Of a stretch of 28,763 nucleotides of DNA, positions 4,973 through 28,230 are shown one piece after another. This DNA is from an uncultured Phycisphaeraceae bacterium (GTDB lineage Bacteria; Planctomycetota; Phycisphaerae; Phycisphaerales; Phycisphaeraceae): positions 1-28,763 of the forward strand of contig CAZVNU010000001.1 of assembly GCA_964628335.1 (NCBI GenBank), written 5' to 3'. Below the pieces are notes generated by a model that saw only the letters and a program-made list of their open reading frames with translations, did not search any database and was not told the DNA's origin. The position numbers and the translations under genes were made by a program. Positions within the stretch are counted from its first letter, which is position 1, and the number at the start of each line of letters is the position of its first letter.

Positions 4973-4988
4973 GGTTCCACGGGGAACA
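4973..4988. other. parS-like centromere site 1
   Basis: GGTTCCACGGGGAACA, close to the bacterial parS palindrome TGTTCCACGTGGAACA; starts immediately after the helicase stop codon. Confidence 0.7.
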
Positions 4989-4990
4989 CT

Positions 4991-5183
4991 GGGAGGGCGG
5001 ACTTTAGTCTGCCATAAGAAAACACAGGCTCAATGCCTGTGTTTTCTTTGTGATTAACACAAACAGCAGGGCTGGCGGGTGTTGGAGCGCGGGTGTCCCG
5101 CCAGCCCTGCACAAACAGGCCGTCAATTAAAAATCGCGGCATTGAGCCGCGATTTTGTTTGGCAGACTGAAGTCCGCCTTCCC
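4991..5183. repeat. Inverted pair of family-1 REP units (REPIN-like) between convergent helicase and parB
   Basis: GGGAGGGCGGACTTTAGTCTGCC at 4991-5013 and an inverted copy at 5161-5183, each with a second hairpin; a family-2 hairpin (14-bp perfect stem, 5066-5079/5097-5110) lies between them. Confidence 0.85.
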
Positions 5184-5185
5184 AG

Positions 5186-5201
5186 TGTTCCCCGTGGAAC
5201 A
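5186..5201. other. parS-like centromere site 2
   Basis: TGTTCCCCGTGGAACA, one mismatch from the perfect parS palindrome; 7 bp beyond the parB stop. Confidence 0.8.
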
Positions 5202-11339: not shown

Positions 11340-11341
11340 CT

Positions 11342-11494
11342 GGGAGGGCGGACTTCAGTCTGCCAAACAAAATCGCGGCTCAACGCCGCGATTTTTAGTG
11401 GAGATGGGATGAGACAACCTCTTGGCGTCGACCTTTTAATTTTCACGGGCATTGAGCCCGTGAAAATGCTTGGTAGACTGAAGTCCGCCCTCCC
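11342..11494. repeat. Inverted pair of family-1 REP units downstream of RAYT
   Basis: GGGAGGGCGGACTTCAGTCTGCC at 11342-11364 and an inverted copy at 11472-11494; second hairpins at 11369-11395 and 11439-11467. Confidence 0.88.
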
Positions 11495-11497
11495 GGT

Positions 11498-12178: not shown

Positions 12179-12192
12179 GGAGCCAGTTTACC

Positions 12193-12318
12193 GGGAGGGC
12201 GGACTTCAGTCTGCCAAACGAAATCACGGCTCAACGCCGCGATTTTTAGTGGGCATGGGATGAGACAATGTCTTGACGCCAACCCTTCATTGCTGCGGGC
12301 ATCGAGCCCGCAGCAATG
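12193..12318. repeat. Family-1 REP unit upstream of RAYT plus degraded partner
   Basis: REP at 12193-12215, second hairpin 12221-12245, spacer similar to 11400-11435, and an orphan hairpin CATTGCTGCGGGC-ATCGA-GCCCGCAGCAATG at 12288-12318. Confidence 0.8.
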
Positions 12319-12524: not shown

Positions 12525-13043
12525 ATGCCCTGGCTCCTCTACTGCCTCCTGATTGCCCTCCTTTTCGCCGGCCTGTGGATCAACCTCCTGGGCTTGCCCG
12601 GCCTGTGGCTGATGATCGTCGCCCACGCCACCTACGGCTGGGCCACGGACTGGGGCGTGCACGCCTCTTGGGAATCGGTCGCCCTGTTGGCGGGCATCGC
12701 GTGCCTGGCGGAACTCGCGGAGTTCTTCTCCGGCGCGGCCGGCGCCAAGTCCGCCGGCGGCTCCAAGCGCGGCATGCTCGGGGCGATGGCCGGCGGATTG
12801 CTCGGCGGATTGCTCCTCACCTTTCTGGTGCCGGTGCCGATCGTCGGAACGATCATCGGCGTGCTCTCCGGCACCTTCCTGGGGGCTCTGGCCAGCGAAG
12901 TGTTGTGGGTCGGCCGCCCCGGCGCCCATGCGGCCAAGATCGGCCTGCGCGCCGCATTGGGCCGTTTGCTTGGCATCCTGATCAAGACCGCCGCCGGTTT
13001 GGCCATCCTGATCTACGCGGCCGTGCGCGGCTTCCCGGGTTGA
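12525..13043 (+). CDS. DUF456-family membrane protein
   Basis: GLPG motif, AGAKSAGGSKRGMLGAMAGG, PVPIVGTIIG...GTFLGA; likely start MPWLLY at 12525. Confidence 0.8.
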   Translation: MPWLLYCLLIALLFAGLWINLLGLPGLWLMIVAHATYGWATDWGVHASWESVALLAGIACLAELAEFFSGAAGAKSAGGSKRGMLGAMAGGLLGGLLLTFLVPVPIVGTIIGVLSGTFLGALASEVLWVGRPGAHAAKIGLRAALGRLLGILIKTAAGLAILIYAAVRGFPG

Positions 13044-13050
13044 TGCATGA

Positions 13051-13080
13051 AAAAACGCGCGCCCGGCGGCGCGCGTTTTT
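13051..13080. terminator. Bidirectional intrinsic terminator
   Basis: AAAAACGCGCGCC-CGGC-GGCGCGCGTTTTT, a perfect 13-bp inverted repeat between convergent genes. Confidence 0.85.
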
Positions 13081-13119
13081 GGGACTTTTAGGGAGCCATG
13101 CGGAAGGATCCGCCTTGTC

Positions 13120-15213
13120 TCACTTCACCAGCGCGCTGACGAGCGCCCGCCCGTCGCGCTCGGCGGTCGCGCCGTCGAGGAAGGCATCCAGCGCGATGGC
13201 GCCGAGTTCGCCGCCGCTGCGGTGGCGCACGGAAACCGTGCGCGCTTCGGCATCCTTGCCGCCCACCACCAGCATGTAGGGCACCTTCTCGTCCTGCGCC
13301 ACTTTGATCTTGCCGCCGATGCGGTCGTTGCTTTCATCGAGCGTGACGCGGAAGTGGCGCGCCTTGAGATGCGCTTCGACTTCTTGCGCGTAGCCGAGGA
13401 ATTTCTCCGAGATCGGCAGGATGCGGATCTGCTCGGGCGAGAGCCACAGCGGGAAGGCGGCGGCGAAGTGCTCGATGAGCACGCCGACGAAACGCTCCAT
13501 CGAGCCGAAGGGCGCGCGGTGCACCATGATGGGGGCGTGGGGGGTGTTGTCGGCGCCGATGTATTCCAACTTGAAGCGCTGCGGCAATTGGTAGTCCACC
13601 TGCACGGTGCCCAACTGCCATTCGCGGCCGACGCAGTCCTTGACCACGAAGTCGATCTTGGGGCCGTAGAAGGCCGCTTCGCCCGGCTCGGCGCTGTAGG
13701 CCACGCCCAGCGATTGGGCCGCATCCAAGCAGGCTTTTTCGGCGGCGTCCCATTGCTCTTGGCTGCCGACGAATTTGCTGGAGTCCGGGTCGCGCAGGCC
13801 CACGCGCACGCGGTAGTCGCTCATGCCCAGCGTGTTGAACACGATCTTCACGAGATCCAGGCAGCCCTGCACTTCCTGCGCCAAGGTTTCCGGCGTGACG
13901 AACAGGTGGGCGTCGTCCTGGGTGAAGCCGCGCACGCGGGTCATGCCGCCGAGTTCGCCGGATTGCTCGAAGCGGTACACCGTGCCGAACTCGGCCAGGC
14001 GCAACGGCAGGTCGCGGTACGAGCGCTTTTCGCTGGCGTAGATGCTGATGTGGTGCGGGCAGTTCATCGGTTTGAGCAGGTAGCCGTCGAGTTGGCCGTT
14101 GTCCAATTTGTTGGCGATGTCGGAACACGAGCAGCCCTCGTGCGCCAATTTTTCCATGTCGGCGGGGTCGATGATGGGGGGGAACTGGCTGGCTTTGTAA
14201 TAGGGGAAGTGGCCGCTGGTGCGGTACAGCTCCAGCTTGCCGATGTGCGGGGTGAACACATGGTGGTAGCCCTGGCGCTCCAAATGCTCGCTGATGAACT
14301 TCTGCAATTCCAAACGCAGGGCGGCACCCTTGGGCTTCCACAAAATCAGGCCTTGCCCGACCTTTTCATCGATGCAGAACAAACCATGCTGGCGGCCCAG
14401 CACGCGGTGGTCGCGGGCGCGGGCTTCTTCCTGCATCTTCAAATGGGCATCCAGTTCAGCCTGCGTGAAAAAGGCCGTGCCATACACGCGCTGGAAGCGG
14501 TCGCTGGTCACATCCCCGTGCCAGTGCGCGGAGGCGACCGACATCACCTTGCAGCCGCCGATCAAGCCGGTGGCGGGGATGTGCGGGCCTTGGCAGAGGT
14601 CCTCGAAGTTTTGCTCGGGGGTGCCGGTGGCATACCACGACAACACCGTCGCGCCGCCGGTGACGGCGCGCTGCGCATTGTCGATCTTGTACTTGTTGCC
14701 TTCGGCGGTGAGGCGCGCCATGCCGTCGGAGAGATCCTTTTCAAAGCGGGTGAGCGGGCGGTTCTCCGCCACGATCTTTTTCATCTCTTCGTCAATCTTG
14801 CCGAAGTCATCCGACGAGATCGGCGTCTCCAACGCCATGTCGTAATAAAAATTGTGCTCCAGCGCCGGGCCGTAAGCCAATTGCGCCGTGGGGTACAGAC
14901 GCAGAATCGCCTCGGCCATCACATGGGCGCAAGTGTGGCGCAGCAGGAACAGCGCGTCGGCCTTGTGCTTGTCGTCGCGGTAGGTGGTGGTGCCGTCCTT
15001 GCCGATCTTGGGGCAGGTGACGATGCCGATGGCGCAATCACCCGGCAGCGGGCGGTGCAAATCCCACAATTGGCTGTCTTTGGCGCCGGGCAACGAAACC
15101 CGCGCGCCGATGGACGCCTTGGCCAAACCCGCGCCGATGGACGAGGCCACCGTGAAGGCCGAAGAACCGGCGGGGAGGTCAAGCGTTTTGCCGTCGGGAA
15201 GCGTGATGAGCAT
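13120..15213 (-). CDS. thrS: Threonine--tRNA ligase
   Basis: TGS domain, RHTCAHVMAEA editing motif, DLCQGPH, LKPMNCPHH, RVRGFTQDDAH, GEAAFYGPKID, HRAPFGSMERF, anticodon-binding domain. Confidence 0.98.
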   Translation of the reverse strand: MLITLPDGKTLDLPAGSSAFTVASSIGAGLAKASIGARVSLPGAKDSQLWDLHRPLPGDCAIGIVTCPKIGKDGTTTYRDDKHKADALFLLRHTCAHVMAEAILRLYPTAQLAYGPALEHNFYYDMALETPISSDDFGKIDEEMKKIVAENRPLTRFEKDLSDGMARLTAEGNKYKIDNAQRAVTGGATVLSWYATGTPEQNFEDLCQGPHIPATGLIGGCKVMSVASAHWHGDVTSDRFQRVYGTAFFTQAELDAHLKMQEEARARDHRVLGRQHGLFCIDEKVGQGLILWKPKGAALRLELQKFISEHLERQGYHHVFTPHIGKLELYRTSGHFPYYKASQFPPIIDPADMEKLAHEGCSCSDIANKLDNGQLDGYLLKPMNCPHHISIYASEKRSYRDLPLRLAEFGTVYRFEQSGELGGMTRVRGFTQDDAHLFVTPETLAQEVQGCLDLVKIVFNTLGMSDYRVRVGLRDPDSSKFVGSQEQWDAAEKACLDAAQSLGVAYSAEPGEAAFYGPKIDFVVKDCVGREWQLGTVQVDYQLPQRFKLEYIGADNTPHAPIMVHRAPFGSMERFVGVLIEHFAAAFPLWLSPEQIRILPISEKFLGYAQEVEAHLKARHFRVTLDESNDRIGGKIKVAQDEKVPYMLVVGGKDAEARTVSVRHRSGGELGAIALDAFLDGATAERDGRALVSALVK

Positions 15214-15284
15214 GGGGAGGGGGCTGTGAAATAAAAGAAAGGAAAAGCGGGAAAGGGACGCAATTCTAAAGGATGCCGCCCCAT

Positions 15285-15313
15285 TTGCCCCAAAAGCCGG
15301 CCTTGCCTACAAT
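15285..15313 (+). promoter_or_regulatory. Sigma70-like promoter of tRNA-Val
   Basis: TTGCCC (15285) -N17- TACAAT (15308), 26 bp upstream of the tRNA. Confidence 0.7.
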
Positions 15314-15339
15314 CCCCACCCCTCCTTCGGGAGCACCCC

Positions 15340-15413
15340 GGGCAGTTAGCTCAGTTGGCTAGAGCGCATCGTTGACATCGATGAGGTCACTGGTTCGAGT
15401 CCAGTACCGCCCA
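15340..15413 (+). tRNA. tRNA-Val (anticodon GAC), CCA not encoded
   Basis: Cloverleaf: GGGCAGT/ACCGCCC acceptor (A5-C68 mismatch), GCTC/GAGC D-stem, CATCG-TTGACAT-CGATG anticodon arm, ACTGG-TTCGAGT-CCAGT T arm, discriminator A. Confidence 0.95.
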
Positions 15414-16757
15414 CTTGGCCCACATCTTTCCGATGTGGGCTTTTTTTTGGACTGGCTTGTTTTCTCGCTTTTCTCCGTGTTTTTTGAAGTTTTCTGCTGC
15501 GGCCTCACTTGCTGCCACGGCCTCGCTCTGGCGCGTTCTGTCTTGGGTTTTGTCTTGGTTTTGCGTTTTTTGAGAAAAAGTGTCAGACAGAACTTTGTCC
15601 GCCAGCCCTTCCTTCACGGCTTCAACAACATCTTCCTCCCCAGTTCGCAGGTAGGAGCGTGCAGCCTCGCCCATGGAGTGCCCTACCCATGCGGCCTCCT
15701 TTTTCCCACCATATTTGTCTTCAATCTCATTGGATGCCGTGCATCGCAGGGATTGACACAAGCGGGGATACTTTTCCAGTCCTGCCGCTTTGATTGCCCT
15801 TGTGATCGCGTTTGTGATCGCCCCTTCGCTTTTTCCATGGATTTCGGGGAACACCAGTCCTTCCGTGGGACGCCCCATTTCTTTCCAGTACGCCGCCAAT
15901 TCTTGACGGATTGGCGTCCCGTCAAACATGGGGCAGGTTCGCCCAGGTCTTCCTGGCTTGGTTTCTTTGATGCGGATTGAAAGGCTATCCCAATTGAGGT
16001 CTTGCCAGCGCAAAAGCCTTGGCTCTTCCTTGCGCAGGCCAGCCCAGCGCAAGAGGGCGTAATAGGGGCGGTACTCACCCTTCAGTTCCTGCATGGTTCT
16101 ACGGGCTTCCGCGTCCCCCACTTTGTAGCGTCTATCCGCCTTGGCAGGGGTAACGGACACCTTGATTTCCTTGCCCTTGGCGACATTCTCCCGCAAAACT
16201 CCATGGGATACACCCCACTCCAATGCGGCCCTCAAGATGCAGGCATCTTTGCGGATGGTGTTTTCCGCGTACTTCACGGTCTTTTCGCCCTTCTTGTAGG
16301 TTGCGTTCCGCATCTTATTTTGCCAATCAATGACGGCCCCTTTGGTCAGGTTGCGGACAAGGAAATTCGCGGGGAAAAACTTCAAAAGCCTACTTAGCAT
16401 GGTGGTTTCCTTTTGAACCGTTGCAGCATGTGATTTCGTGGCGGTGTACGCCTCCATGTAAGCCTTCAGTCCCGTGGGAAGCAATGTTGCGGCCTTGACA
16501 AGACCAAGGGCGGCTAAGCGTTGGCGGACTTCGTATGGACGGCTTTCCGCCCATTTACGGGCATCCTCCGCTGGCTCCGTGGCATGATCAATGGCATCCT
16601 TGAGAGCGTAGACATAGCCATTCCATTTCTGAAATTCGCGCTCATTCTTCAATCCTGTACGGAATTCAACTCTTTTTCCCGTAATCGGTTGGCGGAAGTA
16701 AATGATGTTTGAAAATGCGGGTTTCTTGGCGGCTTTTGGGGTTGTGTGGGCGTTCAT
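15387..16757 (-). CDS. Tyrosine recombinase/integrase, attL form (456 aa)
   Basis: WAGLRKEE (R), KETKPG (K), QSLR, WVGHS and SYL (Y) catalytic motifs; the ORF crosses attL and ends ...WAVLDSNQ antisense to the tRNA T arm. Confidence 0.9.
   Translation of the reverse strand: MNAHTTPKAAKKPAFSNIIYFRQPITGKRVEFRTGLKNEREFQKWNGYVYALKDAIDHATEPAEDARKWAESRPYEVRQRLAALGLVKAATLLPTGLKAYMEAYTATKSHAATVQKETTMLSRLLKFFPANFLVRNLTKGAVIDWQNKMRNATYKKGEKTVKYAENTIRKDACILRAALEWGVSHGVLRENVAKGKEIKVSVTPAKADRRYKVGDAEARRTMQELKGEYRPYYALLRWAGLRKEEPRLLRWQDLNWDSLSIRIKETKPGRPGRTCPMFDGTPIRQELAAYWKEMGRPTEGLVFPEIHGKSEGAITNAITRAIKAAGLEKYPRLCQSLRCTASNEIEDKYGGKKEAAWVGHSMGEAARSYLRTGEEDVVEAVKEGLADKVLSDTFSQKTQNQDKTQDRTRQSEAVAASEAAAENFKKHGEKRENKPVQKKAHIGKMWAKWAVLDSNQ
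15418..15448 (+). terminator. Element-supplied intrinsic terminator for tRNA-Val
   Basis: GCCCACATC-TTTCC-GATGTGGGC followed by T8, beginning 4 bp after the att core; second copy at 21768-21798. Confidence 0.85.
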
Positions 16758-16779
16758 TATGCAGTCTTTCGGAAGTTGT

Positions 16780-16812
16780 GACCTGGATACCAGGTCTTTG
16801 TTCGGGTGTCAA
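16780..16812 (-). promoter_or_regulatory. Candidate int promoter with overlapping palindrome
   Basis: Minus-strand TTGACA (16812-16807) -N17- TATCCA (16789-16784); GACCTGG-ATA-CCAGGTC palindrome at 16780-16796 covers the -10. Confidence 0.45.
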
Positions 16813-16821
16813 GATGTCAGT

Positions 16822-17061
16822 CTATCGCTGGATATATCTATCAATTGAAGAGCGTGTTATGCGCTTTCCTTTCTCTCCTACGGGGATGCGCTCCAACTCT
16901 CCCCGCTCTGCCATGGCGCGGATGGCATCGGCCCCCACACTAAGCAATGCTCCAGCCTCCGCATCCGTCAAAAGCAAGGGGGTGAGCAACTTTCCTCTAA
17001 GTTCTCGCGTCACGATCTCCGCTACTGCTTGGGCTTGTTTCAATCCGTCTAGGTCTAACAT
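16822..17061 (-). CDS. Excisionase-like HTH protein (recombination directionality factor candidate)
   Basis: LLLTDAEAGALLSV...IRAMAERGELERI...RITRSSIDRYI HTH_17/MerR-like pattern; AAAGGAG SD; directly upstream of int. Confidence 0.8.
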   Translation of the reverse strand: MLDLDGLKQAQAVAEIVTRELRGKLLTPLLLTDAEAGALLSVGADAIRAMAERGELERIPVGEKGKRITRSSIDRYIQR

Positions 17062-18384
17062 GGTTTTCTCCTTTCGAGAGATTGGGTTGGAATAAAAATG
17101 GACAAGGGGATAGACTCAAAGGACTGGAAGGCCCTTTTATTCCTCTTTTAGTTATTAGTGGCGCAGGCTTTAGAATGGCCTATGGGCCATTCTAGGCGGC
17201 GATGATTGATTATACGCCGTGCCTCTATTTTGTCTAAACCACCACCCAAGATTCCTATTCAGTTCTGCTAATTTGCGCCGAAAAAAACACATTTGCCCAT
17301 GAAGATGTGCGGGGGTGCAAATATCTCTATTAGATATGGCGAAAAGAAAAATAAATATCAAATAAAGGAAAAACATCTTTTTGACGATAATTAGTTTAGA
17401 GTGGCGTGTTTGCGCCAACAAAAATGCAGAACATCCGTTGTAATCATAGGTAAGTCTGGCATAGTCCCTCTTGTAAGTCGAGTCTCGCTGTGAAGCGTTG
17501 ATGATCTGGCAAGATGTGGAGATGCCCAAGTGCGTGACGGCGCGAGTCTCTGGAGGGCAATGACTATAAAAAATGCGTCGGCCGAGGCGGGATTATTAAC
17601 CCCGCTAAAGTGGAAAACTTCACATGTTTTTGCTAAATCCAGAAGGCACTGGTATACGCGATGTGATTGAAAACACTTGCAACCGCTATGGATAATTTCC
17701 TGCGGTTGGGAAACGGCGTTAAAAAACGAAACGAAAAGGTCAGAATTTGAGGGTGAACTCCTTGAACTGGCTTCCATGAGCGCGATAAATCTATAACTTC
17801 TCATGGGTTTGGCTTCAGGTCTTGAAGTCAGATACGGGAGTGCTGTGAAAGCGAATAACTCTTTTCCCACATAATTTCGCCTACTAACAAAATCATCCTA
17901 ACTTTTGGGCAATTGCTTAAATGAAGGCTTGTTTTTGAAGGAACAGGCGAATCCGCCTGTTGCCTTCGTGGTTTAGTTACGACACTCGCTTTGCTCCGTG
18001 TCGTAGCACACACGATTCGCTGGCGCGAACCGCGTGTGTTTTTGATGAATTGTGGTTTGGACTTTTCAGGCGGAGTGACAGGATTCGGCGTGGCTTTAGG
18101 TTGTAAATTGGATGATTGCAAGTTATTGAAACAAAACTGGATAGCCGACAGGCTATACGGTTTTTTGAGGCGAAGCGAAGTGAGCCGAAAATCCTTGACC
18201 ATGATAGGGGAAGGTCTAGACGCACTTGGTTGTAGGGGCGGATCGTGTTCATGCCATAGTTATATGCCGCCGACCCTTTCTGTCAAAAATTCGCGCAAGA
18301 ATCCGATTCCGTTGGATAAAACTGCCGCCATGGTCAATCCTGAACCGTCTGCGGGGAGATTTGATCTGCACCGACAGGTGCCCA

Positions 18385-19080
18385 TCATGCGGCTTTACCC
18401 CGCTGGAGGATGCCAAGGATTGTCCGCGCCTGCCACCGTCCGCCTTGGCGTGTCTGGCGTCCTTCTTGGGTGAGCGTGTCGGCAATCTTGGCGAGAGAGA
18501 GGCGGCGTGCCCCTTTTGGTTTGCGCCGAAGTTCAAAGATGCGCTCAATGACGGCCTCTTCACCTGGGAGCACGCCGTAAGGTTTAACCCCCTCCACGCG
18601 CCGACCACCTGCGGCCATGCTCTTCTGATCACGGGCATGGCGGAGTTTTTGCACGATGCAATTTTTGTCAAATTGGGCAATGCTGCCAAGGATTTGGCGG
18701 ATCATTACTTTTTCAGGTGATCCCGTGTCATCGGTCAAGGCTTGACCTGATTCCGCATTGATGACAGAAACGCCCATCTTTTTCAGTACCAATAAGATTT
18801 TTTCAGATTCGATGAGGCTTCTTGCTAGACGATCCGCTCTTTCCACAAGAACTACCTTCACGCCTTGCTCTTTGACGGCAAGGAGCAAGCGGGAGAGGGC
18901 GGGGCGGGTGGCCCCTTCGGTCGTCCCGCTCACGCCTTCTTCGCGGAACACTTCCACTACTTCCAGCCCGTTTCGCTTTGCATAGCGTTGACACACCTCA
19001 TGCTGGCGATCCAGCCCCGTGCCATTATTGACTTGGCCAAGAGAGGAGACGCGAAGATACGAGAAGCATGGGGTTTTCAT
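18385..19080 (-). CDS. Serine recombinase (resolvase catalytic domain plus short recombinase DNA-binding domain)
   Basis: YLRVSS catalytic Ser, EEGVSG, RPAL, DRLARS, then KPYG...IADTLTQEG..TRQGGRW recombinase-domain motifs; no zinc-ribbon extension. Confidence 0.9.
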   Translation of the reverse strand: MKTPCFSYLRVSSLGQVNNGTGLDRQHEVCQRYAKRNGLEVVEVFREEGVSGTTEGATRPALSRLLLAVKEQGVKVVLVERADRLARSLIESEKILLVLKKMGVSVINAESGQALTDDTGSPEKVMIRQILGSIAQFDKNCIVQKLRHARDQKSMAAGGRRVEGVKPYGVLPGEEAVIERIFELRRKPKGARRLSLAKIADTLTQEGRQTRQGGRWQARTILGILQRGKAA

Positions 19081-19086
19081 ATCGAA

Positions 19087-19115
19087 ATAATAGCAACTTG
19101 CTATTTAATGGTCAA
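19087..19115 (-). promoter_or_regulatory. Leaderless sigma70 promoter of the serine recombinase with overlapping operator
   Basis: Minus strand TTGACC-N17-TATTAT, 6 nt before the ATG; palindrome ATAGCAACTTGCTAT (19090-19104) overlaps spacer and -10. Confidence 0.75.
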
Positions 19116-19204
19116 GGGTCGGCAGAAAAATCCGTGAATAATTCTTCAGAATCATTCACGGAAACTATCGCAAGTAGCGATATAGCATCTTGTTGTTATC
19201 AAAA

Positions 19205-19489
19205 TCATCGCTTCCGCTTGTCCTGTTTTTTCAACGGAAAGCCCAAAATATCGTTGGGCGTACAGGAGAGAGCAATGGCAAGCCTACAAAGTGCCTCTAC
19301 CGAAGGGCGGCGGGTTCCGCGCTCCCATCCCGCAATGTTCACTTGGCCCACGGTTCGATCCATGCCCATTGCTTCGGCGACTTCCGACTGGGTGAGGTCA
19401 AGGGCCGTGCGTTGCTCTTTGATGCGCTCGCCCAAGTCCGTGCCGCCAAAGTTGAAGGGTTCAAAGGTAGTAGTAAGGAGTTTTGGCAT
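19205..19489 (-). CDS. XRE-family repressor
   Basis: LGERIKEQRTALDLTQSEVAEAMG...IAGWERGTRRPSVEALCRLAIALSCTPNDILG; likely start MPKLL at 19489. Confidence 0.88.
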   Translation of the reverse strand: MPKLLTTTFEPFNFGGTDLGERIKEQRTALDLTQSEVAEAMGMDRTVGQVNIAGWERGTRRPSVEALCRLAIALSCTPNDILGFPLKKQDKRKR

Positions 19490-19527
19490 GGTGGCGAGAG
19501 AATAGCAAGATGCGATACCTTGGCATT

Positions 19528-19767
19528 TCAAAAGAACCGCTGCAACAATCTCAACGCCTCGCGGCGTCTGTCTGTTGCTGATGCCCATTGCGCAAACTCA
19601 ATCGCATCCACCCGCCGTTCCGATGTCTCGCATTTGTGGACTTGGCTTCGGGCCACCTTGAGTTTCGCGGCCAAGTCCCGTTGGGTCATACCAGCATCTT
19701 CCCGCCAGTCCCGTAGGGTGGCGGACAGTTTTTGGTAGTTGGGGTCATGGAGGCGTCCTGCTTTCAT
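19528..19767 (-). CDS. Small XRE HTH protein (controller/C-protein-like)
   Basis: YQKLSATLRDWREDAGMTQRDLAAKL...VHKCETSERRVDAIEF. Confidence 0.82.
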   Translation of the reverse strand: MKAGRLHDPNYQKLSATLRDWREDAGMTQRDLAAKLKVARSQVHKCETSERRVDAIEFAQWASATDRRREALRLLQRFF

Positions 19768-19912
19768 TTTGGAAGCAAGGTAAGCGCGTCCTTCCGTGCT
19801 TCCAGAATCGGGCCAAGATGCCTTGACGATGGAAAGGAGGTTAGATACAGTTCCCTTGCTTCATTTTTAGAAGCAAGACCTTTTCCCCCACCACTCTTTG
19901 GAGAGTCAGCCG

Positions 19913-20329
19913 ATGAAAAATCCCGTCCTTCCCGTCCTCCTGCTTGCCTCCTGCTTCCTTGTAATTGGGTGCGGCAAGAAAGACGCCGCTTCCGCCACCT
20001 CTGCGGCTGTGAATGACTCCTATCCCTCGGTTTCCAAGGAGCGTTTGCAGATACTTAAAAGCGAGTTCTCAAAAAGCTTTCCTTCCAGCATCTACGACGG
20101 AGGAACAATTACCAGCATTGAAAAGTGCGACGACATTGAATATCAATACAAAGTGAATGTGCGGTTCAGCAAGGTTGGGGGTGGCGGTGCGGTCATACTG
20201 AAAATGGACGATCACTTCCATGTTTCTCCCAGTTATACCGTTCTGGAGGGAACGGATCTTGACGGATCTCAAATGCAACTTCAACTTTGTGGGCCCGCAG
20301 CCATCGCAGGTCAATCCAAGAGCAAGTGA
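19913..20329 (+). CDS. Hypothetical lipoprotein
   Basis: MKNPVLPVLLLASCFLVIG-C lipobox; GGAGAG SD upstream of ATG 19913. Confidence 0.72.
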   Translation: MKNPVLPVLLLASCFLVIGCGKKDAASATSAAVNDSYPSVSKERLQILKSEFSKSFPSSIYDGGTITSIEKCDDIEYQYKVNVRFSKVGGGGAVILKMDDHFHVSPSYTVLEGTDLDGSQMQLQLCGPAAIAGQSKSK

Positions 20330-20413
20330 ACGAATCGACAAAAATGTTTTTTTGCAACGCCTCGCTACCACTGTGGAGGCAAACTCGAAACGCCCGAAAT
20401 GGGCAAAGGATGA

Positions 20414-20611
20414 ATGATGTTTGAAACTCCAACAGACCCCAAGAAGGCGATACGAGACGATTTCAAGAAAGACCTGAACGATCTCAAGGCGAAACTTAAC
20501 GGGTATCTTTCACGGCTTGAAGAAGAAAAAGACGCGCCGACAAAGTCCCCTCAAACAGCCATGTCGGACGCAAAAAAAGCAATTGATGGGATAGCAAAAT
20601 GTTTTCAGTAG
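20414..20611 (+). CDS. Small hypothetical coiled-coil protein (65 aa)
   Basis: AAAGGA SD at 20405-20410; amphipathic helix pattern FKKDLNDLKAKLNGYLSRLEEE. Confidence 0.55.
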   Translation: MMFETPTDPKKAIRDDFKKDLNDLKAKLNGYLSRLEEEKDAPTKSPQTAMSDAKKAIDGIAKCFQ

Positions 20612-21119
20612 TCGCCATTTTTCAAACGCCCTTCGCCATCAAACGGCGAGGGTGTTTTTCTTTCCGCCAAAAAATCATCCGCGCCACAAGACTGGAAAAT
20701 GATTCTGGATTTCCCCTTTTCCTGTGGAAAGGCATCGGCGGGGTGGCACCCATGGTGGAATGGCGGAATAGATTTGAAATCTAATTCCCAGCGCAGAAAA
20801 ATTGCGCCCCGCAGAAAGCAGGCATTCCAACCTCCGATGGCCGATGCCCTCAATCCGACCCTGTTTTCAAAACCTGTAAATGGCGAAAACAAAACCAGCA
20901 CGCTTGAGGGCATTTTCAAGTGTCAATTTGTTAGAAAACATCTTGTTTTGAAGTGCGGCGTGATGGTTTGACCTCATGGATCAAAAAATCGACCTTGGCT
21001 AAAGCTTGTATGGTTTTGATGGATTTCAGTTTCGCCTCCTTTTTGGCCATGCGAAGAGGAATCCACTCCCTGATATGTGAAGTTCCTTAGAGCAAGCAAA
21101 CCCTTCAAGGAGATTCGAC

Positions 21120-21389
21120 ATGAAATATGGGCTACTCAAAAAGCATGGGATGGATGGAACAGGCGCGATTATTTACCACTGGGATTTGATCCCGCCCAAA
21201 ATGGTCAAGACTGCCGCTACGAAAGAAGTTGAAGACTGGATCGAGTTGGAACGAGTGCCAAAGGCTTTGGAGGACGATGAAGACACCGTGATCCTTTTGT
21301 GCCGCTGGAATCCGTCGAAAGGGCTGGAAACCGCCAAGCCCATTATTCTCCCCTTTGATGGCCCGCCTGCGGTGGGCTTGGCGATATAG
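21120..21389 (+). CDS. Small hypothetical protein (89 aa)
   Basis: AAGGAG SD at 21107-21112; globular-looking composition. Confidence 0.6.
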   Translation: MKYGLLKKHGMDGTGAIIYHWDLIPPKMVKTAATKEVEDWIELERVPKALEDDEDTVILLCRWNPSKGLETAKPIILPFDGPPAVGLAI

Positions 21390-21592
21390 GCCCAGGTAAT
21401 CACTTCCGACTCTTTCAACAAAATTAAGAATGAAGGGGTTTCGTTACTTGTCAAGGTGGTGGAGGTGGCATTGCCTATTGCGCCGTCCAAGCCCCACAAA
21501 GCGGCCTGAATGCCCCCAGGACGCTTCGCCAATTTAGCCACCCTATTCCCCATCTGACGCCATGGGCGGCTTCCAGCGGCATTCCAGCCGTT

Positions 21593-23107
21593 CTATTTGA
21601 GCAAAGCAAGGATAGCCCGCAGTGCCGCGACCTTTTCAGGCGGCAGACTGGCCAATTCTGCCAGTAACCCCAGCACGCCGTCTTGGGCTTTGTCTTGGTT
21701 TTGGGGGGCCTCCTCTTGTTTTTCACGAGAATCTTGGGCGATAGTCTGGCCCAGTACCGCCCACTTGGCCCACATCTTTCCGATGTGGGCTTTTTTTTGG
21801 ACTGGCTTGTTTTCTCGCTTTTCTCCGTGTTTTTTGAAGTTTTCTGCTGCGGCCTCACTTGCTGCCACGGCCTCGCTCTGGCGCGTTCTGTCTTGGGTTT
21901 TGTCTTGGTTTTGCGTTTTTTGAGAAAAAGTGTCAGACAGAACTTTGTCCGCCAGCCCTTCCTTCACGGCTTCAACAACATCTTCCTCCCCAGTTCGCAG
22001 GTAGGAGCGTGCAGCCTCGCCCATGGAGTGCCCTACCCATGCGGCCTCCTTTTTCCCACCATATTTGTCTTCAATCTCATTGGATGCCGTGCATCGCAGG
22101 GATTGACACAAGCGGGGATACTTTTCCAGTCCTGCCGCTTTGATTGCCCTTGTGATCGCGTTTGTGATCGCCCCTTCGCTTTTTCCATGGATTTCGGGGA
22201 ACACCAGTCCTTCCGTGGGACGCCCCATTTCTTTCCAGTACGCCGCCAATTCTTGACGGATTGGCGTCCCGTCAAACATGGGGCAGGTTCGCCCAGGTCT
22301 TCCTGGCTTGGTTTCTTTGATGCGGATTGAAAGGCTATCCCAATTGAGGTCTTGCCAGCGCAAAAGCCTTGGCTCTTCCTTGCGCAGGCCAGCCCAGCGC
22401 AAGAGGGCGTAATAGGGGCGGTACTCACCCTTCAGTTCCTGCATGGTTCTACGGGCTTCCGCGTCCCCCACTTTGTAGCGTCTATCCGCCTTGGCAGGGG
22501 TAACGGACACCTTGATTTCCTTGCCCTTGGCGACATTCTCCCGCAAAACTCCATGGGATACACCCCACTCCAATGCGGCCCTCAAGATGCAGGCATCTTT
22601 GCGGATGGTGTTTTCCGCGTACTTCACGGTCTTTTCGCCCTTCTTGTAGGTTGCGTTCCGCATCTTATTTTGCCAATCAATGACGGCCCCTTTGGTCAGG
22701 TTGCGGACAAGGAAATTCGCGGGGAAAAACTTCAAAAGCCTACTTAGCATGGTGGTTTCCTTTTGAACCGTTGCAGCATGTGATTTCGTGGCGGTGTACG
22801 CCTCCATGTAAGCCTTCAGTCCCGTGGGAAGCAATGTTGCGGCCTTGACAAGACCAAGGGCGGCTAAGCGTTGGCGGACTTCGTATGGACGGCTTTCCGC
22901 CCATTTACGGGCATCCTCCGCTGGCTCCGTGGCATGATCAATGGCATCCTTGAGAGCGTAGACATAGCCATTCCATTTCTGAAATTCGCGCTCATTCTTC
23001 AATCCTGTACGGAATTCAACTCTTTTTCCCGTAATCGGTTGGCGGAAGTAAATGATGTTTGAAAATGCGGGTTTCTTGGCGGCTTTTGGGGTTGTGTGGG
23101 CGTTCAT
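21593..23107 (-). CDS. Tyrosine integrase, attP-junction form (504 aa)
   Basis: Identical to the 456-aa form up to ...KWAVL, then continues GQTIAQ...LPPEKVAALRAILALLK across the unit1/unit2 junction. Confidence 0.9.
   Translation of the reverse strand: MNAHTTPKAAKKPAFSNIIYFRQPITGKRVEFRTGLKNEREFQKWNGYVYALKDAIDHATEPAEDARKWAESRPYEVRQRLAALGLVKAATLLPTGLKAYMEAYTATKSHAATVQKETTMLSRLLKFFPANFLVRNLTKGAVIDWQNKMRNATYKKGEKTVKYAENTIRKDACILRAALEWGVSHGVLRENVAKGKEIKVSVTPAKADRRYKVGDAEARRTMQELKGEYRPYYALLRWAGLRKEEPRLLRWQDLNWDSLSIRIKETKPGRPGRTCPMFDGTPIRQELAAYWKEMGRPTEGLVFPEIHGKSEGAITNAITRAIKAAGLEKYPRLCQSLRCTASNEIEDKYGGKKEAAWVGHSMGEAARSYLRTGEEDVVEAVKEGLADKVLSDTFSQKTQNQDKTQDRTRQSEAVAASEAAAENFKKHGEKRENKPVQKKAHIGKMWAKWAVLGQTIAQDSREKQEEAPQNQDKAQDGVLGLLAELASLPPEKVAALRAILALLK
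21751..21763 (+). other. attP-type junction core
   Basis: CCAGTACCGCCCA with the attR left flank (ATAGTCTGGC) and the attL right flank (CTTGGCC). Confidence 0.9.
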
Positions 23108-23171
23108 TATGCAGTCTTTCGGAAGTTGTGACCTGGATACCAGGTCTTTGTTCGGGTGTCAAGATGTCAGT

Positions 23172-23411
23172 CTATCGCTGGATATATCTATCAATTGAAG
23201 AGCGTGTTATGCGCTTTCCTTTCTCTCCTACGGGGATGCGCTCCAACTCTCCCCGCTCTGCCATGGCGCGGATGGCATCGGCCCCCACACTAAGCAATGC
23301 TCCAGCCTCCGCATCCGTCAAAAGCAAGGGGGTGAGCAACTTTCCTCTAAGTTCTCGCGTCACGATCTCCGCTACTGCTTGGGCTTGTTTCAATCCGTCT
23401 AGGTCTAACAT
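23172..23411 (-). CDS. Excisionase-like HTH protein (copy 2)
   Basis: Identical translation to 16822-17061. Confidence 0.8.
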   Translation of the reverse strand: MLDLDGLKQAQAVAEIVTRELRGKLLTPLLLTDAEAGALLSVGADAIRAMAERGELERIPVGEKGKRITRSSIDRYIQR

Positions 23412-24734
23412 GGTTTTCTCCTTTCGAGAGATTGGGTTGGAATAAAAATGGACAAGGGGATAGACTCAAAGGACTGGAAGGCCCTTTTATTCCTCTTTTA
23501 GTTATTAGTGGCGCAGGCTTTAGAATGGCCTATGGGCCATTCTAGGCGGCGATGATTGATTATACGCCGTGCCTCTATTTTGTCTAAACCACCACCCAAG
23601 ATTCCTATTCAGTTCTGCTAATTTGCGCCGAAAAAAACACATTTGCCCATGAAGATGTGCGGGGGTGCAAATATCTCTATTAGATATGGCGAAAAGAAAA
23701 ATAAATATCAAATAAAGGAAAAACATCTTTTTGACGATAATTAGTTTAGAGTGGCGTGTTTGCGCCAACAAAAATGCAGAACATCCGTTGTAATCATAGG
23801 TAAGTCTGGCATAGTCCCTCTTGTAAGTCGAGTCTCGCTGTGAAGCGTTGATGATCTGGCAAGATGTGGAGATGCCCAAGTGCGTGACGGCGCGAGTCTC
23901 TGGAGGGCAATGACTATAAAAAATGCGTCGGCCGAGGCGGGATTATTAACCCCGCTAAAGTGGAAAACTTCACATGTTTTTGCTAAATCCAGAAGGCACT
24001 GGTATACGCGATGTGATTGAAAACACTTGCAACCGCTATGGATAATTTCCTGCGGTTGGGAAACGGCGTTAAAAAACGAAACGAAAAGGTCAGAATTTGA
24101 GGGTGAACTCCTTGAACTGGCTTCCATGAGCGCGATAAATCTATAACTTCTCATGGGTTTGGCTTCAGGTCTTGAAGTCAGATACGGGAGTGCTGTGAAA
24201 GCGAATAACTCTTTTCCCACATAATTTCGCCTACTAACAAAATCATCCTAACTTTTGGGCAATTGCTTAAATGAAGGCTTGTTTTTGAAGGAACAGGCGA
24301 ATCCGCCTGTTGCCTTCGTGGTTTAGTTACGACACTCGCTTTGCTCCGTGTCGTAGCACACACGATTCGCTGGCGCGAACCGCGTGTGTTTTTGATGAAT
24401 TGTGGTTTGGACTTTTCAGGCGGAGTGACAGGATTCGGCGTGGCTTTAGGTTGTAAATTGGATGATTGCAAGTTATTGAAACAAAACTGGATAGCCGACA
24501 GGCTATACGGTTTTTTGAGGCGAAGCGAAGTGAGCCGAAAATCCTTGACCATGATAGGGGAAGGTCTAGACGCACTTGGTTGTAGGGGCGGATCGTGTTC
24601 ATGCCATAGTTATATGCCGCCGACCCTTTCTGTCAAAAATTCGCGCAAGAATCCGATTCCGTTGGATAAAACTGCCGCCATGGTCAATCCTGAACCGTCT
24701 GCGGGGAGATTTGATCTGCACCGACAGGTGCCCA

Positions 24735-25430
24735 TCATGCGGCTTTACCCCGCTGGAGGATGCCAAGGATTGTCCGCGCCTGCCACCGTCCGCCTTGGCG
24801 TGTCTGGCGTCCTTCTTGGGTGAGCGTGTCGGCAATCTTGGCGAGAGAGAGGCGGCGTGCCCCTTTTGGTTTGCGCCGAAGTTCAAAGATGCGCTCAATG
24901 ACGGCCTCTTCACCTGGGAGCACGCCGTAAGGTTTAACCCCCTCCACGCGCCGACCACCTGCGGCCATGCTCTTCTGATCACGGGCATGGCGGAGTTTTT
25001 GCACGATGCAATTTTTGTCAAATTGGGCAATGCTGCCAAGGATTTGGCGGATCATTACTTTTTCAGGTGATCCCGTGTCATCGGTCAAGGCTTGACCTGA
25101 TTCCGCATTGATGACAGAAACGCCCATCTTTTTCAGTACCAATAAGATTTTTTCAGATTCGATGAGGCTTCTTGCTAGACGATCCGCTCTTTCCACAAGA
25201 ACTACCTTCACGCCTTGCTCTTTGACGGCAAGGAGCAAGCGGGAGAGGGCGGGGCGGGTGGCCCCTTCGGTCGTCCCGCTCACGCCTTCTTCGCGGAACA
25301 CTTCCACTACTTCCAGCCCGTTTCGCTTTGCATAGCGTTGACACACCTCATGCTGGCGATCCAGCCCCGTGCCATTATTGACTTGGCCAAGAGAGGAGAC
25401 GCGAAGATACGAGAAGCATGGGGTTTTCAT
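24735..25430 (-). CDS. Serine recombinase (copy 2)
   Basis: Identical translation to 18385-19080. Confidence 0.9.
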   Translation of the reverse strand: MKTPCFSYLRVSSLGQVNNGTGLDRQHEVCQRYAKRNGLEVVEVFREEGVSGTTEGATRPALSRLLLAVKEQGVKVVLVERADRLARSLIESEKILLVLKKMGVSVINAESGQALTDDTGSPEKVMIRQILGSIAQFDKNCIVQKLRHARDQKSMAAGGRRVEGVKPYGVLPGEEAVIERIFELRRKPKGARRLSLAKIADTLTQEGRQTRQGGRWQARTILGILQRGKAA

Positions 25431-25554
25431 ATCGAAATAATAGCAACTTGCTATTTAATGGTCAAGGGTCGGCAGAAAAATCCGTGAATAATTCTTCAGA
25501 ATCATTCACGGAAACTATCGCAAGTAGCGATATAGCATCTTGTTGTTATCAAAA

Positions 25555-25839
25555 TCATCGCTTCCGCTTGTCCTGTTTTTTCAACGGAAAGCCCAAAATA
25601 TCGTTGGGCGTACAGGAGAGAGCAATGGCAAGCCTACAAAGTGCCTCTACCGAAGGGCGGCGGGTTCCGCGCTCCCATCCCGCAATGTTCACTTGGCCCA
25701 CGGTTCGATCCATGCCCATTGCTTCGGCGACTTCCGACTGGGTGAGGTCAAGGGCCGTGCGTTGCTCTTTGATGCGCTCGCCCAAGTCCGTGCCGCCAAA
25801 GTTGAAGGGTTCAAAGGTAGTAGTAAGGAGTTTTGGCAT
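25555..25839 (-). CDS. XRE-family repressor (copy 2)
   Basis: Identical translation to 19205-19489. Confidence 0.88.
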   Translation of the reverse strand: MPKLLTTTFEPFNFGGTDLGERIKEQRTALDLTQSEVAEAMGMDRTVGQVNIAGWERGTRRPSVEALCRLAIALSCTPNDILGFPLKKQDKRKR

Positions 25840-25877
25840 GGTGGCGAGAGAATAGCAAGATGCGATACCTTGGCATT

Positions 25878-26117
25878 TCAAAAGAACCGCTGCAACAATC
25901 TCAACGCCTCGCGGCGTCTGTCTGTTGCTGATGCCCATTGCGCAAACTCAATCGCATCCACCCGCCGTTCCGATGTCTCGCATTTGTGGACTTGGCTTCG
26001 GGCCACCTTGAGTTTCGCGGCCAAGTCCCGTTGGGTCATACCAGCATCTTCCCGCCAGTCCCGTAGGGTGGCGGACAGTTTTTGGTAGTTGGGGTCATGG
26101 AGGCGTCCTGCTTTCAT
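25878..26117 (-). CDS. Small XRE HTH protein (copy 2)
   Basis: Identical translation to 19528-19767. Confidence 0.82.
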   Translation of the reverse strand: MKAGRLHDPNYQKLSATLRDWREDAGMTQRDLAAKLKVARSQVHKCETSERRVDAIEFAQWASATDRRREALRLLQRFF

Positions 26118-26262
26118 TTTGGAAGCAAGGTAAGCGCGTCCTTCCGTGCTTCCAGAATCGGGCCAAGATGCCTTGACGATGGAAAGGAGGTTAGATACAG
26201 TTCCCTTGCTTCATTTTTAGAAGCAAGACCTTTTCCCCCACCACTCTTTGGAGAGTCAGCCG

Positions 26263-26679
26263 ATGAAAAATCCCGTCCTTCCCGTCCTCCTGCTTGCCTC
26301 CTGCTTCCTTGTAATTGGGTGCGGCAAGAAAGACGCCGCTTCCGCCACCTCTGCGGCTGTGAATGACTCCTATCCCTCGGTTTCCAAGGAGCGTTTGCAG
26401 ATACTTAAAAGCGAGTTCTCAAAAAGCTTTCCTTCCAGCATCTACGACGGAGGAACAATTACCAGCATTGAAAAGTGCGACGACATTGAATATCAATACA
26501 AAGTGAATGTGCGGTTCAGCAAGGTTGGGGGTGGCGGTGCGGTCATACTGAAAATGGACGATCACTTCCATGTTTCTCCCAGTTATACCGTTCTGGAGGG
26601 AACGGATCTTGACGGATCTCAAATGCAACTTCAACTTTGTGGGCCCGCAGCCATCGCAGGTCAATCCAAGAGCAAGTGA
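26263..26679 (+). CDS. Hypothetical lipoprotein (copy 2)
   Basis: Identical translation to 19913-20329. Confidence 0.72.
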   Translation: MKNPVLPVLLLASCFLVIGCGKKDAASATSAAVNDSYPSVSKERLQILKSEFSKSFPSSIYDGGTITSIEKCDDIEYQYKVNVRFSKVGGGGAVILKMDDHFHVSPSYTVLEGTDLDGSQMQLQLCGPAAIAGQSKSK

Positions 26680-26763
26680 ACGAATCGACAAAAATGTTTT
26701 TTTGCAACGCCTCGCTACCACTGTGGAGGCAAACTCGAAACGCCCGAAATGGGCAAAGGATGA

Positions 26764-26961
26764 ATGATGTTTGAAACTCCAACAGACCCCAAGAAGGCGA
26801 TACGAGACGATTTCAAGAAAGACCTGAACGATCTCAAGGCGAAACTTAACGGGTATCTTTCACGGCTTGAAGAAGAAAAAGACGCGCCGACAAAGTCCCC
26901 TCAAACAGCCATGTCGGACGCAAAAAAAGCAATTGATGGGATAGCAAAATGTTTTCAGTAG
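26764..26961 (+). CDS. Small hypothetical protein (copy 2)
   Basis: Identical translation to 20414-20611. Confidence 0.55.
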   Translation: MMFETPTDPKKAIRDDFKKDLNDLKAKLNGYLSRLEEEKDAPTKSPQTAMSDAKKAIDGIAKCFQ

Positions 26962-27469
26962 TCGCCATTTTTCAAACGCCCTTCGCCATCAAACGGCGAG
27001 GGTGTTTTTCTTTCCGCCAAAAAATCATCCGCGCCACAAGACTGGAAAATGATTCTGGATTTCCCCTTTTCCTGTGGAAAGGCATCGGCGGGGTGGCACC
27101 CATGGTGGAATGGCGGAATAGATTTGAAATCTAATTCCCAGCGCAGAAAAATTGCGCCCCGCAGAAAGCAGGCATTCCAACCTCCGATGGCCGATGCCCT
27201 CAATCCGACCCTGTTTTCAAAACCTGTAAATGGCGAAAACAAAACCAGCACGCTTGAGGGCATTTTCAAGTGTCAATTTGTTAGAAAACATCTTGTTTTG
27301 AAGTGCGGCGTGATGGTTTGACCTCATGGATCAAAAAATCGACCTTGGCTAAAGCTTGTATGGTTTTGATGGATTTCAGTTTCGCCTCCTTTTTGGCCAT
27401 GCGAAGAGGAATCCACTCCCTGATATGTGAAGTTCCTTAGAGCAAGCAAACCCTTCAAGGAGATTCGAC

Positions 27470-27739
27470 ATGAAATATGGGCTACTCAAAAAGCATGGGA
27501 TGGATGGAACAGGCGCGATTATTTACCACTGGGATTTGATCCCGCCCAAAATGGTCAAGACTGCCGCTACGAAAGAAGTTGAAGACTGGATCGAGTTGGA
27601 ACGAGTGCCAAAGGCTTTGGAGGACGATGAAGACACCGTGATCCTTTTGTGCCGCTGGAATCCGTCGAAAGGGCTGGAAACCGCCAAGCCCATTATTCTC
27701 CCCTTTGATGGCCCGCCTGCGGTGGGCTTGGCGATATAG
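27470..27739 (+). CDS. Small hypothetical protein (copy 2)
   Basis: Identical translation to 21120-21389. Confidence 0.6.
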   Translation: MKYGLLKKHGMDGTGAIIYHWDLIPPKMVKTAATKEVEDWIELERVPKALEDDEDTVILLCRWNPSKGLETAKPIILPFDGPPAVGLAI

Positions 27740-27942
27740 GCCCAGGTAATCACTTCCGACTCTTTCAACAAAATTAAGAATGAAGGGGTTTCGTTACTTG
27801 TCAAGGTGGTGGAGGTGGCATTGCCTATTGCGCCGTCCAAGCCCCACAAAGCGGCCTGAATGCCCCCAGGACGCTTCGCCAATTTAGCCACCCTATTCCC
27901 CATCTGACGCCATGGGCGGCTTCCAGCGGCATTCCAGCCGTT

Positions 27943-28113
27943 CTATTTGAGCAAAGCAAGGATAGCCCGCAGTGCCGCGACCTTTTCAGGCGGCAGACTG
28001 GCCAATTCTGCCAGTAACCCCAGCACGCCGTCTTGGGCTTTGTCTTGGTTTTGGGGGGCCTCCTCTTGTTTTTCACGAGAATCTTGGGCGATAGTCTGGC
28101 CCAGTACCGCCCA
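27943..28113 (-). pseudogene. Orphaned 3' tail of the integrase gene at attR
   Basis: Same WAVLGQTIAQ...ILALLK tail as the 504-aa form, but preceded by an in-frame TGA at 28141-28143 with no ATG, GTG or TTG between. Confidence 0.8.
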
Positions 28114-28117
28114 TAAT

Positions 28118-28141
28118 GGCCCGCCAAACGGCGGGTCTTTT
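28118..28141 (+). terminator. Terminator following the displaced tRNA 3' end (attR)
   Basis: GGCCCGCC-AAAC-GGCGGGTC-TTTT just after the core at 28101-28113. Confidence 0.75.
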
Positions 28142-28230
28142 CATTTCCCCAGTCGCCACGCCAAAGAACCAGCGACCCTGTCGCGCCTGTGGCGCGCCAG
28201 ATCACGGGGAAAGATCGCGCTGCGCGGATG

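Follow-up and report, generated by a model that had tools for sequence, protein, structure and literature searches.

An exact repeat at a tRNA-Val gene

The window analysed here is the whole of one contig (CAZVNU010000001.1, 28,763 bp) from a fragmented metagenome-assembled genome (MAG; 466 contigs, N50 7.2 kb, 84.8% completeness; GCA_964628335.1) of an uncultured Phycisphaeraceae bacterium, and its subject is a 6.35-kb integrative element that appears in the contig as two head-to-tail copies behind a tRNA-Val gene. The chromosomal left flank carries thrS (threonine-tRNA ligase; 13120–15213, minus strand; NCBIfam TIGR00418, E 3.5e-183), with nearest relatives in Phycisphaerae/Planctomycetota MAGs, and between thrS and the element lies the integration target, an intact tRNA-Val(GAC) gene (15340–15414, plus strand, by ARAGORN; Rfam RF00005, 64.9 bits, 15340–15413). 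The unit has a GC content of 50.7% vs. 60% in the left flank, and the tRNA was the sole match in an Rfam scan of the unit.

We found that self-comparison at an offset of 6350 gives an unbroken identity of 6363 bases (15401–21763 = 21751–28113), and the block 15401–28113 consists of 2 × 6350 + 13 bases with 0 mismatches in head-to-tail order. Unit copy 1 (15401–21750, 6350 bp including one core) and unit copy 2 (21751–28100), both on the plus strand, are identical, with 0 differences in 6350 bp, and matches to the unit in the 2.6-Mb genome fall in only two places, both within this contig. A 13-bp core, CCAGTACCGCCCA, stands at 15401 (the attL core, 15401–15413), at 21751 (the internal junction, 21751–21763) and at 28101 (the attR core, 28101–28113), each time on the plus strand, and it equals the final 13 bases of tRNA-Val(GAC) (positions 61–73), which begin in the 3′ strand of the T stem, continue along the acceptor strand and end at the discriminator. 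On its left the middle junction matches attR and on its right attL, which gives it an attP-type structure, and the resulting order, attL-unit-attP-unit-attR, is that of a tandem array at the level of the contig. The repeat is confirmed, far beyond chance, and the first-pass annotation, which had described an exact dimer with a period of 6350 bp in this order and a junction joining the attR left flank to the attL right flank, is borne out on both counts. A 24-bp direct repeat (15540–15563, plus strand; repeat family D4) has a partner at 21680–21703 (23/24 identical) and a second set at 21890–21913 and 28030–28053; in a circular form the two copies would sit 47 bp to the left and 126 bp to the right of the core, and we regard them as candidate arm-type sites for the integrase.

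The insertion itself could be read against an unoccupied site. Contig C138 of G001, a genome from the same genus, carries an identical tRNA-Val and core with the terminator taaagaacccgccaaacggcgggtttttt directly after it, and this terminator corresponds to the window sequence 3′ of the attR core, taatggcccgccaaacggcgggtctttt (28114–28145, plus strand), the native tRNA-Val terminator now displaced 12.7 kb from its tRNA. Because the attB of this relative is empty, the element in the window is an insertion, and the insertion is site-specific at the 3′ end of tRNA-Val, as the annotation of an integrative element in this gene had proposed. The place of the native terminator is taken by an element-borne one, a hairpin with a 10-pair stem followed by TTTTTTTT (hairpin + T8; 15417–15449, plus strand, by terminator scan) that lies directly after the tRNA and has a second copy at 21767–21799. 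We also noted, parsing the tRNA by eye (15340–15413), an A5-C68 mismatch in the acceptor stem; since the same sequence stands at the empty site of G001, the mismatch is native and was not made by the insertion.

A run from another study (X4, 2025) contains pieces of the unit without differences, together with a thrS flank (13000–15415) that is ~95% identical. Two of its contigs leave the tRNA into other sequence containing CCAAACGGCGGG, resembling the empty site of a related strain. This pattern is a hint of polymorphism or mobility of the element between close relatives.

The enzyme expected to act on the core is encoded beside attL. A tyrosine integrase of 456 aa (attL form; 15387–16757, minus strand; identified by Pfam, PHROG, alignment and model) starts at 16757, and its frame passes through the core to stop inside the tRNA. 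It matches PHROG 1 (integrase, E 5e-21) and the Pfam Phage_integrase family (E 2.1e-05; 24.8 bits, slightly below the 27.1 cut-off), and it is divergent, with 722 relatives at E≤1e-10 of which the best has 36% identity. The catalytic R-K-R-Y set is present (R237, K267, R338 and Y369, invariant among 37 aligned relatives), and residues 20–385 were modelled with a predicted local distance difference test (pLDDT) score of 85–97. At the internal junction the same gene has a longer, attP form of 504 aa (21593–23107, minus strand, from the open reading frame (ORF) list), the last 48 codons of which derive from the opposite end of the unit; the annotated identity of ORF translations between the two units therefore does not extend to the integrase, whose frame crosses the core (456 aa in copy 1 vs. 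504 aa at the junction). In the longer form residues 398–476 are poorly modelled, the last ~28 form two helices (pLDDT 83–88), and no homologues cover the C-terminal tail. The tail frame runs for 119 codons without a stop (P = 0.007, mononucleotide shuffle), and as a second frame on this T-poor strand is equally open, the open frame is weak evidence for coding.

Directly upstream of the integrase gene lies an excisionase-like helix-turn-helix (HTH) protein of 79 aa (16822–17061, copy 2 at 23172–23411, minus strand), which matches Pfam HTH_17 above the cut-off (29.5 bits), PHROG 66 (excisionase/regulator) and, below the cut-off, TIGR01764 ‘excise’ (E 3.7e-05). The nearest integrase relative (36%) and three homologues of a second recombinase of the unit (see below) lie in unrelated contexts, and no element family could be built from them.

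Assembly type, read depth and copy number

To interpret the two copies one has to know how the contig was made. We found 96 contig-end 55-mers that are common to several contigs and none at 56 bases, and runs of N with a length of 10 (×173) or 100 (×3) that mark scaffolds; the contig studied here is without N. By these signs the MAG was assembled from short reads with a k=55 de Bruijn assembler of the SPAdes or metaSPAdes kind and output as scaffolds; apart from the dimer, it has no long exact repeat inside any contig. No short-read pair spans 6350 bp, and the number of units in the contig is consequently a path choice and not a measurement. The absence of differences between the units has the same root, because a path that crosses the same edge twice necessarily writes the same sequence twice. 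The 13-bp core, on the other hand, is far below k=55, so the k-mers of the junction must derive from reads; reads crossing the attP-type joint very probably existed, and they could have come from circles, from a minority of tandems or from concatemers. As a separate observation, the last 55 bases of the contig (28709–28763) equal the last 55 of contig C45 in the same orientation, and the contig thus stops at a graph branch 650 bp past attR.

This reasoning bears on a pure assembly error, in which no read would contain an attP joint and the contig would be, for example, a mis-join or a duplicated scaffold. Repetition of one genome 2.0–6.8 times within a metagenome contig has been called a probable assembly artefact (CheckV; Nayfach et al., 2020, PMC8116208), and we found no independent sequence with the joint, both of which would fit such an error. 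A k=55 graph, however, needs k-mers from reads before it can make a joint over 13 bp of identity, the position of the joint coincides exactly with the att core, as expected of site-specific recombination, and no N gap interrupts the contig; we therefore regard an error of this kind as highly improbable.

We favour, with moderate confidence, the reading that the MAG holds one integrated copy together with attP-bearing molecules, which the assembler has drawn as a dimer. A single 6.35-kb copy would sit in the 3′ end of tRNA-Val, and some of the sampled molecules would carry an attP joint from unit end to unit start, most plausibly as excised circles and less likely as minority tandems or concatemers. 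A k=55 assembler would represent the unit by a single edge of its graph, with attP forming the back-edge, and path extension of the SPAdes type would be expected to write out a simple loop with one extra traversal (flank-unit-junction-unit-flank). The shortest walk that uses every edge, when written out as flank, unit, junction, unit and flank, would then look like a perfect dimer, and the internal junction of this apparent dimer would be the attP of the excised form. In the corresponding cycle the tyrosine integrase would exchange strands within the 13-bp core that attP shares with tRNA positions 61–73, regenerating the tRNA, which would gain the element-borne terminator. The HTH_17 protein encoded upstream of the integrase gene is the probable excision directionality factor.

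Depth offered a further line of evidence. We took depths from the Logan contigs of five runs of short reads, which belong to two studies, using records that lie outside 21634–21800 and giving no weight to uncovered stretches; these depths are coarse values and not copy numbers. The best-matching public run (X1) holds 95% of the sampled query words and shares a 2912-bp contig with SRR16798008, with which it is probably identical. Among X1 records without differences, the flank stood at 5.35 and 5.6 and the unit at 5.95, 6.6, 6.8, 5.3 and 3.7, a length-weighted unit/flank ratio of ~1.1, where a fixed dimer predicts 2. Furthermore, an X1 attL contig that starts at 15392 in the tRNA enters the unit without a break at 15401, which weighs against a strong second in-edge from the attP joint. 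The X1 data are thus no more than indicative evidence against a fixed dimer in that run. In a second run (X2) the unit is continuous at 3.3–6.8 over a patchy flank (bins of 0.8–2.8), and the comparison of unit with flank accordingly gave a ratio near one in X1 and a unit that may be in excess of its flank in X2.

The chief competitor is a true chromosomal tandem dimer, formed when a second circle entered attL or attR of a resident copy or when a dimeric circle integrated; the walk written by the assembler would then be correct by chance. A tandem integrant would show precisely the attL-unit-attP-unit-attR order of the contig, the X2 unit appears about twice as deep as its patchy flank, and a coverage-aware loop resolver would also yield two copies if the unit were present at 2×. 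Tandem arrays of integrase-borne elements are, moreover, well documented, those of SGI1 reaching up to six copies and persisting through passages (PMC2297512). Against a dimer speak the about equal depths of unit and flank in X1, the attL contig that is unbranched at the core, and the fact that the assembly cannot have spanned the repeat. The intact serine recombinase of the unit, if it were a resolvase acting on a site in the unit, would also be expected to collapse direct repeats. On balance we consider a tandem dimer unlikely, though it carries appreciable weight.

Several points weigh against the single integrated copy with attP-bearing molecules that we favour. The X2 unit lies above its patchy flank, which would fit extra copies in that run, and Logan contig depths are too coarse to be a measure of copy number. 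The once-through traversal of a simple loop is what SPAdes-type path extension would be expected to give. We also found no independent assembly in which the 6.35-kb unit stands as a free circle, and no other record of the integrase in its 504-aa junction form. JGI metagenome contigs and IMG/VR contained neither the attP 41-mer nor a 32-mer of the unit, the unit had no blastn match in phage or plasmid collections, and no copy of it occurs in 60 related genomes.

Taken together, these results show that the element is real and suggest that it is probably active. The first-pass annotation had pictured an active element that excises, circularises and can accumulate tandemly, with an assembler unrolling an excised circle as the alternative. 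The element has an integrase and an excisionase-like gene, and its attP joint needed reads at k=55. Tandem accumulation is not supported, as a short-read contig cannot span 6.35 kb, two copies are the minimal walk of a loop and the X1 depth is not 2×. What had been offered as the alternative is, from the assembly type and the X1 depth, the better reading.

Other genes of the unit and the search for replication functions

Beyond the integrase and the excisionase-like protein, the unit encodes an intact small serine recombinase of 231 aa (18385–19080, copy 2 at 24735–25430, minus strand; Pfam Resolvase, E 2.8e-29), which has at least 200 full-length homologues (217–254 aa, 44–55% identity) in varied mobile contexts and which may resolve multimers of the element. 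Two XRE-family HTH regulators are encoded on the same strand, one at 19205–19588 (copy 2 at 25555–25938; Pfam HTH_3, E 6.8e-12; PHROG repressor families) and one of 79 aa at 19528–19767 (copy 2 at 25878–26117; Pfam HTH_31, E 2.7e-09), and these two probably set the integrated or excised state. Between the XRE and serine recombinase genes we noted a near-perfect 32-bp palindrome (19131–19162), which scores as a minus-strand terminator (14-pair stem, then a T run); a terminator is a simpler reading of this palindrome than a recombination site.

The plus strand carries a putative lipoprotein of 143 aa, probably cargo (19898–20329, copy 2 at 26248–26679), with a signal peptide and a lipobox-like LVIGC. 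Its nearest Atlas clusters are named ‘Lipoprotein’ (score 0.87, a weak lead only), and it had no family match in Pfam, PHROGs, NCBIfam or PADLOC. Two small ORFs follow on the same strand, both from the ORF list, one of 65 aa (20414–20611) with no family match and one of 89 aa (21120–21389) with no Pfam family or Atlas match. In the work on the function of the lipoprotein and small ORFs, the AlphaFold2 (AF2) model (pLDDT 51) was too poor for a fold search.

Between the excisionase-like gene and the serine recombinase lies a low-GC stretch of 1.28 kb (17100–18384; GC 43–46%) with no recognisable gene, in which every frame was without a Pfam match at E≤0.1 and no Rfam family was recognised. It contains three adjacent strong hairpins at ~17937–18040, with fold z-scores of −3.6 to −5.3 on both strands (17600–18200) and of −4.4 for 17790–18170 on the minus strand, and this cluster may represent an origin, a site for transfer or packaging, or a non-coding RNA. 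As a separate matter, we considered whether the 231-aa recombinase and the gene-free stretch might be remnants of one decayed large serine integrase, and rejected it: the six frames of 17100–18400 held no recombinase or zinc-ribbon match, the 231-aa protein falls in a large family of full-length proteins of 217–254 aa, and a search among longer proteins came back empty.

The first-pass annotation had recognised no Rep, relaxase, capsid or conjugation gene, and wider searches agree with it: Rep, primase, relaxase, secretion, capsid and terminase families had no match in Pfam, PHROGs, NCBIfam or PADLOC, the last returning only generic HTH matches. Mobilisation families were likewise without a match in Pfam, PHROGs and NCBIfam, and no Rep family of a replication initiator was found among the ORFs or in a six-frame translation of 17100–18400. 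At 6.35 kb, with eight small genes and no type IV secretion, coupling protein or relaxase family, the unit does not have the content of an integrative and conjugative element. Judged from its predicted proteins, no gene of the element would appear to provide replication, transfer or packaging.

Such a gene content raises the question of a helper. In a satellite scenario, the attP joints would come from head-to-tail concatemers of a helper-dependent element for which a phage provides replication or packaging, as for PICMI elements, and the integrated copy would be its resting state. The size of 6.35 kb and the pair of an integrase and an AlpA/Xis-like HTH protein resemble PICMI115 (PMC10803314), the unit exceeds the flank in X2, and an origin or a packaging site could be located in the 1.28-kb stretch with its strong hairpins. 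Pfam, PHROGs and NCBIfam, however, detected neither a primase, which is the third core function of PICMI elements, nor a Rep; the element occupies a tRNA gene in a planctomycete, whereas PICMI elements occupy fis in vibrios; IMG/VR and the phage and plasmid collections yielded no helper phage, virome match or relative; and the depth in X1 is ~1×. We hold a satellite of this kind to be improbable, and the helper dependence (satellite or integrative mobilisable element) that the annotation had suggested found no positive evidence, with no primase, Rep or relaxase in the unit and no relatives for comparison.

A broader conjecture would be that a minimal planctomycete element lacking Rep exists as head-to-tail multimers, either as tandem chromosomal arrays whose copy number the serine recombinase would control or as concatemers packaged by a helper phage, with the C-terminus of its integrase switching between 456 and 504 aa according to the att state. 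We regard this as a long shot.

Outside the element, the chromosomal part of the window holds copies of a REP-like repeat family, ACTGGGAGGGCGGACTTCAGTCTGCC, some direct and others inverted, at 4988–5186, 11339–11497 and 12190–12287.

Significance and comparison with known elements

To our knowledge, Phycisphaerae-type planctomycetes have few known mobile elements, and genetic tools for them are likewise few. If the attP joint were confirmed in reads, the unit would be an active and very small integrative element of this group, and its integrase, with a 13-bp target in tRNA-Val, could serve as an integration vector. For assemblies more generally, letter-perfect dimers in short-read MAGs are best read as an integrated copy plus a circular joint until depth or long reads say otherwise.

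Among elements of known behaviour, KplE1 (CPS-53) of E. coli K-12, with ~10 kb at the tRNA gene argW and IntS and TorI, and e14 of the same strain, with ~15 kb and Int, Xis, a repressor and the Pin serine invertase, offer the closest parallel. Like them, the element has a tyrosine integrase beside an att site, a small HTH protein of the excision factor type and repressor-type regulators, and like them it is without replication, capsid or transfer genes and would be able to excise; the additional small serine recombinase is a further likeness to e14. It differs in its smaller size (6.35 kb), in a best integrase match of 36%, in its host, an uncultured Phycisphaerae-like planctomycete, and in having no recognisable phage-derived genes. 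Its gene content thus seems most like that of small excision-competent islets or defective prophages, without kinship in sequence, and a prophage origin would be unsupported by its genes.

In size, and as regards head-to-tail multimers, the nearest match is PICMI115 (6110 bp, six genes, a core of int, alpA and a primase; packaged as an 8-mer concatemer; Barcia-Cruz et al., 2024, PMC10803314). Both are ~6 kb long, pair an integrase with a small AlpA/Xis-type regulator, contain a few small genes of no known family and are expected to form head-to-tail joints. The present element differs in being without a primase, in residing in tRNA-Val beside thrS and not at fis, in belonging to a planctomycete and not to Vibrionaceae, and in having no known helper. 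The concatenated contigs flagged by CheckV share with our contig the exact repeat of one genome within a single short-read metagenome contig, but here chromosome flanks the repeat on both sides, and the picture is one of an integrated copy plus a circular joint and not of a free circle walked repeatedly.

Tandem arrays also occur in SXT/R391 elements and in lambda polylysogens. In the contig, the element shares with these and with the arrays of SGI1 (up to six copies; Doublet et al., 2008, PMC2297512; reviewed in PMC5704250) the order attL-unit-attP-unit-attR and an unbroken internal attP of the kind that its own integrase would make. Arrays of the SGI1 type were shown by Southern blot, PCR or copy-number assays, whereas here the path of a short-read contig is the sole witness and one run stands at ~1×; the contig depths of X1, a weak test, give the unit 5.3–6.8 vs. 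5.35–5.6 for the flank and not the excess of an array. Even a true dimer, then, would be an arrangement already known for integrase-borne elements.

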